Shown: positions 12,478 to 17,610, numbered from the stretch's first letter. The stretch is 64,000 nucleotides of DNA from Lachnospiraceae bacterium (GCA_024685005.1 JAIKWF010000048.1:5470-69469); one strand, 5' to 3'. The notes: generated by a model from the sequence alone, not told the origin. Program-made: numbers and translations.

Positions 12478-12545
12478 TATAGGCTTTGCCTATAGGCCTT
12501 CATTATTTTTTGGTATTAGACAGGACAAAAGGGTTGAAATATGAT
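12478..12545 (+). promoter_or_regulatory. Met-box-like palindrome plus promoter P2 (nitrogenase-like operon)
   Basis: TATAGGCTTTGCCTATA (12478-12494), -35 TAGACA (12517-12522), 17-nt spacer, -10 TATGAT (12540-12545). Indexing was checked against the track ORF that starts at 12486. Confidence 0.6.
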
Positions 12546-12629
12546 GAGCTGGTAGCGGTTTGCCAGGCAAATTCGCTGACGGGGGGCAGGATGTGTTCGG
12601 TCCCCAACAAAAAACAGGAGGAAAAAACA

Positions 12630-14147
12630 ATGTCAAACATTAATCTGTCTCTTCCGGCTGTAGAGATCCGGGAGGTTCGAACCAGATCAGTTACAGGTTA
12701 TGACGGGAAAGCCGGAGAACTGGTGCAGAAAGCGCACGACGGTTCTCTTCGGGACGTGGAACGTTCTTTTCAGCAATGCGCCGGCTGCTCCATTACCAAG
12801 GCAGCCTGTATGACAGTACTGATCCAGGATGCGGCGGTGATCGAACACGGACCGGTGGGATGCTCCACCTGCCTGCAGGAATATAACTTTACCTATGCGG
12901 TAAACGCCGATTTAAGAGGCGTATCAAACCCCACAAGGCGCAGGATCTTTTCCACCAATCTGCAGGAAAAGGATACGGTTTACGGCGGACTGCGGAAGCT
13001 GGAAAAAACCATCCGCAGCGTATACGAGCGTACAAAGCCAAACGCCATCTTCGTGCTTTCCACCTGTGCCGCAGCCATTATAGGCGATGATATTGAAAGC
13101 GCCTGCGAAGAAGCAGAGGATGAGCTGGGAATTCCGGTGGTATCCATTGTCTGCGAAGGCTTCCGCTCCCGGGTGTGGACCACGGGATTTGATGCGGCTT
13201 ATCACGGCATTGCCAGAAAGCTCATCGATCCGCCGAAGGAAAAACGAAAGGACCTGATCAACGTGATCAATTTCTGGGGAAGCGATCGTTTTACAGACTG
13301 GTTTGCGCCCTTCGGATGCAAACCCAAATACATCACTCCTTTTTCCACAGTGAACGATCTTCGCAGCGCTTCCGAATCGGCAGCAACCATTCAGGCCTGC
13401 TCTACTCTGGGAAGTTATCTGGCGGCTGTTTTGGAAAAAGAGTTTGACGTGCCGGAGATCGAAACGGCACCGCCCTACGGGATTGCCCAGACAGACCGGT
13501 GGTTCAGAGCACTGGGAAAGATCCTGGGAAAAGAAGAGATCGCAGAGCAGGTCATCGCCGAAAAGAAGGAAAAATACCTGGGCAGGATCGCTCAGCTGAG
13601 AGAAAAGCTGCAGGGAAAGACAGCATACGTTACCGGCGGAGCTGCCCACGGACACGCACTTTTGTCTGTGCTGGGAGAGCTGGGGATCAATGCGGTGGGA
13701 GCTTCCATTTTCCATCATGATTCGGTGTTTGATTCCGGACGGGATGAAAACGATCAGCTGATGCAGAGAGTGGGGGATTACGGCGATGTGAGAAATTACA
13801 GGGTCTGCTCCAAGCAGGAGTATGAGTTGGCTAACTCCCTGGGGAAACTTCATCCGGATATTTTGCTTTCCAGACACGGGGGCATGACACTGTGGGGAGC
13901 CAAGTACGGAATCCCGTCCCTTCTGGTGGGAGATGAACATTACAGCATGGGTTATGAGGGAATCATTGATTACGGAGAGAGAATTCTGGATACCATTGAG
14001 AATGATGAGTTTGTAAAGAATCTGCAAAAGCATGCCATCAATCCCTATACAAAGTGGTGGCTGATGCAAAGACCGGATTACTTCTTTGAGACATCGGATA
14101 AAAAAGAAAAAGGAAAGGAGGAAAGTCAAAATGCCGGCATTGAATGA
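12630..14147 (+). CDS. nitrogenase-like component 1, NifD/NifE-like alpha subunit
   Basis: Start at MSNINLSL (ATG 12630, RBS AGGAGG), not the track start 12486. Motifs CAGCS, IEHGPVGC and STCAAAIIGDDIE match the P-cluster Cys positions of NifD. IQACSTLGSY and GDEHYSMGY resemble the Cys275 and His442 regions. Confidence 0.85.
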   Translation: MSNINLSLPAVEIREVRTRSVTGYDGKAGELVQKAHDGSLRDVERSFQQCAGCSITKAACMTVLIQDAAVIEHGPVGCSTCLQEYNFTYAVNADLRGVSNPTRRRIFSTNLQEKDTVYGGLRKLEKTIRSVYERTKPNAIFVLSTCAAAIIGDDIESACEEAEDELGIPVVSIVCEGFRSRVWTTGFDAAYHGIARKLIDPPKEKRKDLINVINFWGSDRFTDWFAPFGCKPKYITPFSTVNDLRSASESAATIQACSTLGSYLAAVLEKEFDVPEIETAPPYGIAQTDRWFRALGKILGKEEIAEQVIAEKKEKYLGRIAQLREKLQGKTAYVTGGAAHGHALLSVLGELGINAVGASIFHHDSVFDSGRDENDQLMQRVGDYGDVRNYRVCSKQEYELANSLGKLHPDILLSRHGGMTLWGAKYGIPSLLVGDEHYSMGYEGIIDYGERILDTIENDEFVKNLQKHAINPYTKWWLMQRPDYFFETSDKKEKGKEESQNAGIE

Positions 14148-15842: not shown

Positions 15843-16714
15843 GTATTTCACCACAGGAACTGAGACAGCGCCATCCCTGTTTTGCGCTGGGAGAAAAAAC
15901 AAACAGCGGCAGGATTCATTTGCCGGTGAGCTTCGGATGCAACATCGGCTGCAATTTTTGCATACGGGATCTGAATGAAACGGAAAACAGACCCGGAGTT
16001 GCCGGTGACATCCTTACGCCAAAAGAAGCCCTGGAGGCCGTAGGCCGGGCGGTGGAAGCCATGCCTCAGATACAGGTGGCCGGCGTGGCCGGACCGGGAG
16101 ATACCCTGGCAAGTCCCCATGCGCTGGAGACGTTTCGCCTGATTAAGGAAAGGTATCCGAAGCTGATCAAGTGCATGAGTACCAACGGACTGATGCTTTC
16201 AAAGCTGGCAGATCAGGTGATAGAAGCGGGCATTGATACGCTTACCGTAACGGTAAATGCAGTGGACGAAGAGATCCTTGCACAGATCAACAGCTTTGTG
16301 ATCTGGGAAGGGAAAAAATACGAAGGGATACAGGCGGCAAAGATCCTCATCGAAAATCAGCTTTCAGGCATTGAAAAGGTTGTTAAGGGAGGCGTTACGG
16401 TAAAGGTCAATACCGTACTGATCCCCCAACTGAATCAGGAGCATATCGGGAAGATCGCCAAAACCGTGGCAGAGCGGGGGGCGTCGATCTATAACATCAT
16501 CCCTCTGATCCCACAGCATAAGCTGAAAAACATGAGAGAACCTTCCTGCGAAGAACTTTACAGCGCAAGGGCGGAGGCAGAGAAGTATATCAGGGTATTC
16601 CGGCATTGTCAAAGGTGCCGGGCCGATGCGGCAGGCATCCCGGGCGGAAGGGATATTTCCAAACAGATCTATCTGAAAGAGATCCGGGCGGAGAACACCT
16701 TTTCACATGGATGA
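15839..16714 (+). CDS. radical SAM protein, minimal NifB-like
   Basis: 291 aa. HPCF then CNIGCNFC (CX3CX2C), followed by NETENRPGV and GVAGPGD as in NifB. TTG start overlaps the preceding stop by 4 nt. No fused NifX domain. Confidence 0.8.
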   Translation: MSISPQELRQRHPCFALGEKTNSGRIHLPVSFGCNIGCNFCIRDLNETENRPGVAGDILTPKEALEAVGRAVEAMPQIQVAGVAGPGDTLASPHALETFRLIKERYPKLIKCMSTNGLMLSKLADQVIEAGIDTLTVTVNAVDEEILAQINSFVIWEGKKYEGIQAAKILIENQLSGIEKVVKGGVTVKVNTVLIPQLNQEHIGKIAKTVAERGASIYNIIPLIPQHKLKNMREPSCEELYSARAEAEKYIRVFRHCQRCRADAAGIPGGRDISKQIYLKEIRAENTFSHG

Positions 16715-16755
16715 TCATTGATAAAAAAGAAAGATACAAGTAGGAGGAAACCAAC

Positions 16756-17610
16756 ATGGAAGAACACATCAGACAGATTGCAATTTACGGAAAAGGAGGG
16801 ATCGGCAAATCCACCACCACCCAGAACCTGACAGCGGGGCTGGCAGAGCGGGGCAAGAACGTAATGGTGGTTGGCTGCGATCCCAAGGCGGATTCCACCA
16901 GACTGCTTTTGGGGACGTTAGCCCAGAAGACGGTATTGGACACACTGCGGGAAGAAGGAGATGAGATCGAGCTTTCCAGTATCATGCGGGAGGGATTCCA
17001 CGGGATCAAATGTGTGGAGTCCGGCGGACCGGAACCCGGCGTAGGCTGCGCGGGCCGCGGCATCATCACATCCATCGGCCTTTTGGAGCAGCAGGGCGCT
17101 TATACCGATGATCTGGATTATGTTTTTTACGATGTATTGGGCGACGTGGTCTGCGGCGGATTCGCAATGCCCATGAGGGAAGGAAAAGCAAGAGAGATCT
17201 ACATTGTGGCATCCGGAGAGATGATGGCACTGTATGCCGCCAATAACATTTCTAAAGGAATCGCAAAGTACGCCAAAAAGAGCGGCGTCAGACTTGGCGG
17301 AATCATTTGCAACAGCCGAAATGTGGACAGAGAGATCGACCTTTTGAAGGCCTTTTCCAAAGAGCTGGGAACCCAGCTGATCTATTTTGTGCCCAGAAAC
17401 AATGTGGTGCAGAGGGCCGAGATCAACAGAAAAACCGTTATCGAATATGAACCCAAATCCACCCAGGCTGATGAGTACAGAAAGCTTGCCAGCGCCATTG
17501 ATCAGAATGATATGTTCACCATTCCCACTCCCATGACGCAGGAACGGTTAGAGGAGATCCTGCTGGAATACGGCCTGATGGACGCATTGAAAGACAACTA
17601 TAACATCTGA
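16756..17610 (+). CDS. nitrogenase-like reductase, NifH-like ATPase
   Basis: [18 protein letters not shown]-loop, CDPKADSTR switch I, and both 4Fe-4S ligand cysteines (GVGCAGRGI and [10 protein letters not shown]). 284 aa. Confidence 0.9.

Follow-up and report, generated by a model that had tools for sequence, protein, structure and literature searches.

Does a nitrogenase-like (NFL) gene cluster that includes a canonical NifH-type Fe protein necessarily serve nitrogen fixation, or can it serve the acquisition of another element? The question is raised by a five-gene operon, nflDKXBH, in a 64,000-nucleotide stretch of a Lachnospiraceae bacterium genome (GCA_024685005.1, JAIKWF010000048.1:5470-69469; hereafter the window, with positions counted from its first letter). 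An annotation made from the DNA alone (the sequence-only reading) had proposed an organosulfur reductase under methionine-type control. Our computational follow-up points to a Group IV-A NFL two-component reductase for sulfur acquisition, not nitrogen fixation, an answer that we regard as probable but well short of secure. As judged from its genomic context, the enzyme would most likely cut C–S bonds and thereby scavenge sulfur. The genomic context supports the earlier sulfur proposal well, while C–S cleavage and the nature of the substrate are features that we infer.

The operon consists of five co-directional open reading frames (ORFs), read in the window at 12630-17610 in the order D-K-X-B-H. 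They are translationally coupled: D and K overlap by 17 nt, K and X share ATGA, X and B share TTGA, and B and H are 41 nt apart. These coordinates reproduce every ORF and junction of the sequence-only reading, and domain searches recovered Nitro_FeMo-Co and NifB (274 bits) in the two products that it had called NifX/NafY-like and a 291-aa NifB-like radical S-adenosylmethionine (SAM) protein. A protein with 100% identity to D is on record in GenBank, from a Lachnospiraceae metagenome-assembled genome. D, K, B and H were each compared against all PDB sequences. NifB, which carries CNIGCNFC at residue 34 and CRADA at residue 260 and has no C-terminal NifX domain in Pfam/NCBIfam, matched Methanothermobacter NifB (7JMA/7BI7) with 291 bits and every cysteine motif aligned.

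The catalytic subunits are closest to those of methylthio-alkane reductase (Mar). Window D matched Rhodospirillum rubrum MarD (9FMG/9D9U) over its full length with 407 bits (E = 1e-121; 40% identity), compared to at most 122 bits for the best nitrogenase alpha chain, NifE or BchB/N, and K matched MarK with 378 bits compared to 76 bits for NifK. D also fell below the NCBIfam cut-offs for NifD (131 versus 654 bits), VnfD (102 versus 823 bits) and AnfD (65 versus 874 bits), in agreement with the earlier placement outside Groups I–III. Its top NCBIfam match was NifE, at 175 bits against a cut-off of 505; a NifE-like scaffold reading of D was rejected because the MarD match is far stronger than this sub-cut-off score.

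Alignments with the solved Mar enzyme were used to locate the metal ligands. All six P-cluster cysteines are retained (C53, C78 and C146 in D; C15, C39 and C99 in K). In MarD, the [Fe8S9C] cluster is bound by Cys270 and His429, the latter within an Arg428–His429 pair on Loop I, and this loop is specific to Mar (PMC12552129). MarD C270 aligned to C257 of window D and R428–H429 to R415–H416 ('LLSRHGG'); C257 and H416, with R415 adjacent, are the predicted cofactor ligands. The residues that had been picked out by eye are all present as numbered, both in D (C53, C78, C146, C257 and H437) and in K (C15, C39 and C99), but the choice of H437 as an M-cluster-type ligand has to be revised, as the solved MarD ligand His429 aligns to H416. 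H437 ('GDEH') occupies the NifD-His442-like position; it is invariant and kept in MarD too, where it is not a ligand of the solved structure. In an alignment of 78 clade members, C257, R415 and H416 were invariant (78/78), as were the equivalents of MarD W195, F199, F374 and H375 (78/78). Four positions differ from MarD across the clade: H194 is changed to V/I, S196 to T, M70 to K/Q/R and I101 to T, corresponding to V182, T184, K57 and T88 in the window protein. Work on Rhodopseudomonas palustris places M70 and I101 among positions tied to substrate selection along the channel and treats H194 and S196 as conserved near-cofactor residues (bioRxiv 10.64898/2026.08.20.746119).

The lineage of window D was placed by an exhaustive, profile-free search of 1.84 billion representative proteins and by neighbour-joining trees with bootstraps, in which deeper nodes were without resolution. 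Among the representatives, the lineage corresponds to a single 50%-identity cluster (P0121; 68% identical to window D), and other full-length relatives are at most 42% identical. In the trees, window D belongs to a clade with 100% bootstrap support and lies outside a separate 100% clade composed of R. rubrum MarD, P0124 and a Pectinatus paralogue; it is therefore not inside the IV-C clade of R. rubrum MarD. The D protein of Clostridium thermocellum (Clo1313_2331), 75% identical to window D, falls within the same 100% clade, and the C. thermocellum genes were labelled Group IV-A in a 2023 preprint (PMC10418091). For NfaD of Endomicrobium proavitum, a 2026 Chemical Reviews article lists cysteines 53, 78, 146 and 257 plus 50, 60 and 81 (PMC13474568). 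The same seven positions are cysteines in window D (C50, C53, C60, C78, C81, C146 and C257), a combination found in no other lineage of the alignment, and the three NfaK-type cysteines are also present in window K (C15, C39 and C99). Because the NfaD numbering matches and a clade-mate carries the IV-A label, the sequences point to membership of Group IV-A ('Nfa').

This placement alters the earlier view of the cluster as either a Firmicute counterpart of Mar or an uncharacterised clade: the lineage is separate from IV-C Mar, and its clade, a large one to which C. thermocellum Clo1313_2331/2332 belong, already has a name and so is not new. The choice of Mar-like D and K subunits for comparison was sound, but the IV-A 'Nfa' group, whose type member E. 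proavitum is reported to fix N2, had been left out of consideration. The D-K...H gene order and the free-standing NifX do not set the cluster apart, as Endomicrobium has the order NifDKH (PMC11257099) and R. palustris Mar needs a separate NifX (bioRxiv 10.64898/2026.08.20.746119).

The promoter ties the operon to cysteine and methionine metabolism. As the sequence-only reading had it, the operon has its own Met-box-type promoter at 12478-12545, and the palindrome with its −35 and −10 elements spans exactly these coordinates. The box is a perfect palindrome, TATAGGC-TTT-GCCTATA, inside an extended inverted repeat (12471-12501). The core ATAG-N7-CTAT occurs in five copies in the window, compared to 0.6 expected. 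A composite scan of both strands (box with up to two mismatches, −35 whose first base is exactly 39 nt past that of the box, −10 at +62) returned exactly five sites in the 64 kb, all on the + strand and all ahead of Cys/Met genes or the operon. The box centre is located ~66 nt upstream of the predicted transcription start. LysR-type activators, which follow the T-N11-A rule, classically have their recognition site around −65. The palindrome TATAG-N7-CTATA agrees with this rule, and the five sites share their spacing to −35 and −10. The adjacent LysR-family regulator is the candidate binder of the box; in two related Lachnospiraceae loci (L001 and L002), a 77%-identical LysR protein is encoded beside the cluster and the same box–promoter module is present. 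The box was not found in the Eubacterium oxidoreducens locus (L003), so LysR/box control is lineage-specific. Riboswitch control (S-box or T-box) was also considered and rejected, as Rfam searches of the window and seven related loci were empty at gathering or E-value thresholds.

Further elements were observed around these promoters. The first two boxes lie within longer, 13–14-bp inverted repeats (9937-9971 and 12471-12501) followed by T-rich tracts, and a terminator scan flagged both; lysR or cysK, the gene ahead of each, might therefore also end there. Another hairpin with a T-run is found at ~12436-12465, after the cysK stop codon. A 43-codon ORF (10085-10216) with a GGAGG site, 6 Met and 4 Cys (MMTVCRMAAENNMRCMTRIIFPAIYTEQATSAGCLCLIKMQPL) lies in the leader of ~300 nt that separates cgl from the first promoter; it could encode a leader peptide or could be due to chance.

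The association with sulfur genes extends well beyond this genome. More than 541 relatives were returned when a single genome was scanned for each GTDB species, and gene context was counted for the best 80 loci (66–85% identity), which belong to Clostridia, Treponema and Pectinatus. Co-directional Cys/Met genes are present in 75/80 loci. A pyridoxal phosphate-dependent Cys/Met enzyme is encoded in 62 loci, and a paralogue of O-acetylhomoserine sulfhydrylase (OAHS), mostly between B and H, in 52. A NitT/TauT-type ATP-binding cassette (ABC) importer (SsuA/TauA-like NMT1) lies within the operon in 39 loci, and a PII gene was found in none of the 80. The promoter module and the sulfur genes of the 75 loci together bear out the proposed embedding in a methionine/cysteine regulon. 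Sulfur acquisition is suggested because the operon shares its promoter module with cgl-cysK, metNIQ and metY and because Cys/Met synteny is nearly universal among its relatives.

Two related loci add detail. In C. thermocellum (L081:5042-19550), the order is Rrf2, divided from cystathionine gamma-lyase (CGL)-CysK-DUF4418-FtsX-ABC-GNAT-D-K-X-B-OAHS-substrate-binding protein-permease-ATPase-NifH; a PNP_UDP_1 nucleosidase/phosphorylase gene stands beside this cluster, and the cysK homologue Cthe_1560 and the orthologous D gene Cthe_1565 belong to one co-regulated cluster (PMC3478167). In Pectinatus haikarae (L070:7084-12817), a single operon comprises CGL, CysK, MetNIQ and two DK pairs, a IV-C Mar-type pair and, directly downstream of it, a IV-A-type pair. 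That this organism keeps both types side by side argues for non-redundant enzymes with distinct substrates. Other arrangements were noted among the relatives. Immediately ahead of D, genes for a DUF4418 protein, an FtsX-type permease, an ABC ATPase and a GNAT acetyltransferase are found repeatedly, in the C. thermocellum locus and in 12–22 others; taken with the M20 amidohydrolase in the regulon of the window, this block gives a hint that N-acetylated derivatives of sulfur amino acids are intermediates. In two Treponema loci (L066:19815-22015 and L069:19673-22014), a DK pair of a third lineage (P0123-like, 40% identical to window D) follows a NifH-type gene; this pair keeps the Arg–His pair and is without the GDEH histidine.

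The Fe protein has a different affinity from the subunits that it would serve. H passes the NifH equivalog TIGR01287 (459.5 bits versus a cut-off of 394). In the PDB search, it matched Clostridium pasteurianum NifH with 472 bits and 78% identity, gap-free across 269 residues, and Azotobacter NifH with ~423 bits, but MarH with only 283 bits. The intact P-loop and both 4Fe–4S cysteines ascribed to it are in place (P-loop at residue 12, C98 and C133). Its identification as a NifH-like ATPase was right as far as it went; that the protein is of NifH type rather than MarH type had been missed. It is also unlike the reported NfaH, which groups with MarH (PMC9147875). The system is, by sequence, a mosaic of Mar-like catalytic subunits and a near-canonical NifH. 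In an Oscillospiraceae metagenome-assembled genome (L078:1544-2419), a IV-A-type DK pair occurs with an Fe protein of MarH type (503 bits to 9FMG_D), from which it follows that Fe-protein partners have been swapped inside the clade.

A working model can be put together from these elements. On Met/Cys shortage, the adjacent LysR-type regulator would bind the TATAG-N7-CTATA box near −66 of the five promoters and switch on cgl-cysK, nflDKXBH, the two metNIQ importer operons and metY. NifB would build the [Fe8S9C] L-cluster, and NifX would carry it to the D2K2 core, where it would be held by Cys257 and His416; the P-cluster would bridge D (C53, C78 and C146) and K (C15, C39 and C99). The NifH-type Fe protein would deliver MgATP-driven low-potential electrons via the P-cluster to the L-cluster, at which the C–S bond of an organosulfur compound would be reductively cleaved. 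MetY or CysK would then fix the freed thiol, methanethiol or sulfide, and the cystathionine enzyme would take part in its interconversion. Judging by the altered channel residues, by the importers within the operons and by the presence of a true Mar alongside, the substrate is probably not one of Mar's small volatile thioethers but a more polar, imported compound.

The alternatives were weighed against the same evidence. The enzyme could be a Mar isozyme that cleaves dimethylsulfide (DMS), ethyl methyl sulfide or 2-(methylthio)ethanol (MT-EtOH), including that of 5′-methylthioadenosine (MTA) salvage, to methanethiol and methane, ethane or ethylene. No solved homologue is closer than Mar, its cofactor ligands are kept and metY is in the same regulon, whose Fe-dependent alcohol dehydrogenase could turn the aldehyde into MT-EtOH; the PNP_UDP_1 gene adjoining the C. 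thermocellum cluster would also fit, and functional MAR systems in Clostridia are expected by the 2026 review (PMC13474568). We nevertheless consider an isozyme unlikely, if worth taking seriously, given that the two clades are separate with 100% bootstrap each, that Pectinatus holds both types, that four residues of the channel or active site show consistent differences, one of them becoming charged or polar, that ABC importers in the operons suit non-volatile substrates and that no MTA-salvage genes were found in the window. Those importers, of NitT/TauT type in the operons of 39/80 related loci and of C. thermocellum, would instead speak for a reductive desulfonating or other C–S/S–O enzyme that acts on sulfonates or sulfoxides, like isethionate reductase, and releases sulfite or sulfide rather than methanethiol. 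The polar or charged residue at the MarD M70 channel position and cysK in the regulon are compatible with such chemistry, which is quite improbable all the same: isethionate reductase (IV-F) lacks the L-cluster ligands and two P-cluster cysteines (PMC13474568), all of which the window protein keeps, no sulfite reductase is encoded in the loci, the importers of the window are metNIQ rather than Ssu/Tau-type, and the most conserved partner enzyme is the OAHS paralogue.

Reduction of N2, or of another nitrogen oxide or compound, to ammonia by an alternative nitrogenase (Nfa), as reported for E. proavitum, would account for the IV-A cysteine signature (PMC13474568), the Fe protein above the NifH equivalog cut-off, the presence of NifB and NifX and old reports of acetylene reduction by C. 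thermocellum (PMC4676874). Acetylene is, however, also reduced by Mar, and N2 fixation as the primary role is doubted by the review itself (PMC13474568). Within the window, NifEN is absent and the sole NifV-like gene is weak (139 versus 463 bits) and 24 kb away; PII is missing there and from the 80 related loci, the promoter belongs to a Cys/Met regulon, sulfur-gene synteny is conserved, and D has V182 rather than a His in the MarD-H194/NifD-Q191/H195 region. A nitrogenase is very hard to reconcile with this combination. Hardly any weight is given to a cofactor scaffold or maturase (NifEN-like) or to a selenium (methyl-selenide) enzyme: the NifE score of 175 bits, although the top NCBIfam match of D, is far under both the 505 cut-off and the MarD match; the LysR and AhpD-like proteins match selenium-associated families weakly, with no selenium genes found in the window; and IV-A genes do occur near mlp gene clusters, most of them selenium-linked, but the preprint that describes this ties the IV-A genes specifically to the non-selenium clade (PMC10418091).

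Several points nevertheless count against sulfur acquisition by a Group IV-A reductase. H is of the canonical NifH type that a true nitrogenase would use. E. proavitum, the IV-A type member, incorporated 15N2 and expressed nfaH only without ammonium (PMC13474568), and N2 fixation is attributed to it in PMC10418091 as well. The clostridial IV-A members appear to be known solely through their genes and transcriptomics, and the IV-A assignment of the window proteins draws on published E. proavitum residue numbers and on a preprint label for C. thermocellum. The absence of nif genes refers to the 64-kb window, and it is by adjacency that the LysR protein is paired with the box.

The remaining features of the window are listed with the operon in the table. 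The flanking genes named by the sequence-only reading (lyase, cysteine synthase, AhpD-like protein, YezD, two metNIQ sets and metY) were all recovered by family matches. Its statement that nifE/N and PII genes are missing also holds, as family scans found no NifE, NifN or NifV and no PII (GlnB homologue) in the 64 kb. OscA, to which the small YezD/DUF2292 ORF bears a weak resemblance, is a sulfur-starvation protein. An HMGL-family synthase at 41107-42474, 24 kb from the cluster, has NifV as its top match (139 bits versus a cut-off of 463) and is unlikely to be related to the cluster. A GH9 cellulase with CBM4/9 (38748-41063) is consistent with a plant-fibre-degrading (rumen or gut) Lachnospiraceae host.

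Table. Genes and regulatory modules of the nflDKXBH region, in window coordinates.
Feature	Position	Strand	Remarks
LysR-family regulator, candidate box binder	8967-9893	+	family match; adjacent
Second module, upstream of cgl-cysK	9946-10013	+	TATAGATTTTGGCTATA, TAGACA, TATGAT
Cystathionine gamma-lyase/synthase-family gene (cgl)	10324-11490	+	family match
cysK, cysteine synthase	11511-12434	+	family match
Operon regulatory module	12478-12545	+	box TATAGGCTTTGCCTATA 12478-12494; −35 TAGACA 12517-12522; 17-nt spacer; −10 TATGAT 12540-12545
NflD, catalytic alpha subunit, 505 aa	12630-14147	+	Oxidored_nitro (Pfam/NCBIfam); assigned to Group IV-A
NflK, beta subunit, 448 aa	14131-15477	+	Oxidored_nitro
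NifX/NafY-family cofactor carrier, 122 aa	15474-15842	+	Nitro_FeMo-Co
Stand-alone radical-SAM NifB, 291 aa	15839-16714	+	NifB, 274 bits; predicted [Fe8S9C] L-cluster synthase
Fe protein, canonical NifH type, 284 aa	16756-17610	+	NifH, 459.5 bits
Third module, ahead of ahpD-like, yezD/oscA-like, metNIQ and amidohydrolase	17617-17684	+	CATAGGCAAAACCTATA, TAGACA, TAAGAT
AhpD-like CxxC protein	17723-18277	+	operon behind third module
YezD/DUF2292, OscA-like small ORF, 53 aa	18296-18457	+	weak OscA match, 27 bits versus 85 cut-off
metN	18579-19634	+	
metI	19631-20311	+	
metQ	20345-21343	+	
M20 amidohydrolase	21354-22535	+	
Fourth module, ahead of metQNI and Fe-dependent alcohol dehydrogenase	22547-22614	+	TATAGGTTTTACCTATA, TTGTCA, TATAGT
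Second metQ-metN-metI set with alcohol dehydrogenase	22580-26732	+	true start of metQ probably downstream of fourth module
Iron-containing alcohol dehydrogenase	25542-26732	+	
Fifth module, ahead of metY	32103-32170	+	TATAGGATGAGGCTATA, TATACA, TATGAT
metY, O-acetylhomoserine sulfhydrylase	32221-33504	+	would fix methanethiol or sulfide

The sulfur reading is partly anticipated by the literature, in which the IV-A clade, the resemblance of its ligands to those of Mar and its common occurrence near sulfur genes have been described (North et al. 2020, as cited by others; PMC10418091; PMC13474568). Three findings appear not to have been described before: a regulon of five LysR/MET-box promoters to which the NFL operon belongs, how widely sulfur genes accompany the IV-A clusters, and that in Clostridia and Treponema the usual Fe-protein partner is of NifH type. 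Tentatively, and with rather more doubt than belief, we extend the reading to the clade as a whole: the IV-A 'Nfa' enzymes may primarily be sulfur-starvation-induced C–S reductases that act on polar imported organosulfur, with the N2 reduction of Endomicrobium as a side activity and with a NifH-type partner in Clostridia and Treponema. Group IV-A is among the largest nitrogenase-like clades, with at least 80 species-level genomes in which D is at least 66% identical, including C. thermocellum, Treponema and Pectinatus, and the sole role assigned to it, alternative N2 fixation, is openly doubted by the 2026 review (PMC13474568). If the proposal is true, many gut, rumen and termite 'Cluster III nifH' sequences would report sulfur scavenging instead of diazotrophy. 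With H above the NifH equivalog cut-off, nifH marker surveys would score the window type as a diazotroph; a near-canonical NifH dedicated to an enzyme other than a nitrogenase would bear on nifH-based estimates of diazotrophy in anaerobic gut ecosystems. The question is directly testable, since a C. thermocellum nifH deletion strain exists.

Among known systems, the regulatory element recalls the MET-box of the streptococcal MtaR–MetR LysR regulon (TATAGTTtnaAACTATA). Both boxes have the form TATAG-N7-CTATA, stand ahead of methionine transport or biosynthesis genes and have a LysR gene adjacent; the window box has GG...CC rather than TT...AA as inner bases. As for the enzyme, MarBHDK of R. rubrum (Group IV-C; 9FMG, 9D9U) shares the six P-cluster cysteines, the Cys and Arg–His ligands, a NifB-type maturase and a link to methionine synthesis through O-acetylhomoserine sulfhydrylase. 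The window system differs in its separate clade, four changed channel or active-site residues, the order D-K-X-B-H, the NifH-type Fe protein (472 bits, compared to 283 bits to MarH) and the LysR/MET-box-type promoter. Mar itself forms methanethiol together with ethylene or methane from MT-EtOH or DMS, whereas the window system is known from its genes.

NfaBHDK of E. proavitum and Heliophilum fasciatum ('nitrogen fixation alternative') is alike in its D-K...H order, in having NifB without NifEN and in the identical NfaD cysteine numbers. NfaH is reported to group with MarH, unlike the NifH-type protein of the window, and Nfa is described as repressed by ammonium, in a genome that has a PII regulator, whereas the window operon has a Cys/Met promoter and neighbours and no PII gene nearby. 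The cluster of C. thermocellum (Acetivibrio; Clo1313_2331-2339/Cthe_1565-1573) has the same D-K-X-B core and a NifH-type Fe protein, and it forms one operon with a cystathionine enzyme and CysK. That operon is longer, with additional DUF4418-FtsX-ABC and GNAT genes and with an OAHS paralogue and a NitT/TauT importer between B and H, and it has a divergent Rrf2 regulator in place of the LysR protein and box of the window. IsrBHDK of Rhodobacter capsulatus (IV-F) is, as proposed for the window system, nitrogenase-like and induced for the acquisition of imported organosulfur; Isr is without the L-cluster ligands and two P-cluster cysteines, and IsrB consists of the radical-SAM core only, whereas the window protein keeps the full Mar-type ligand set.

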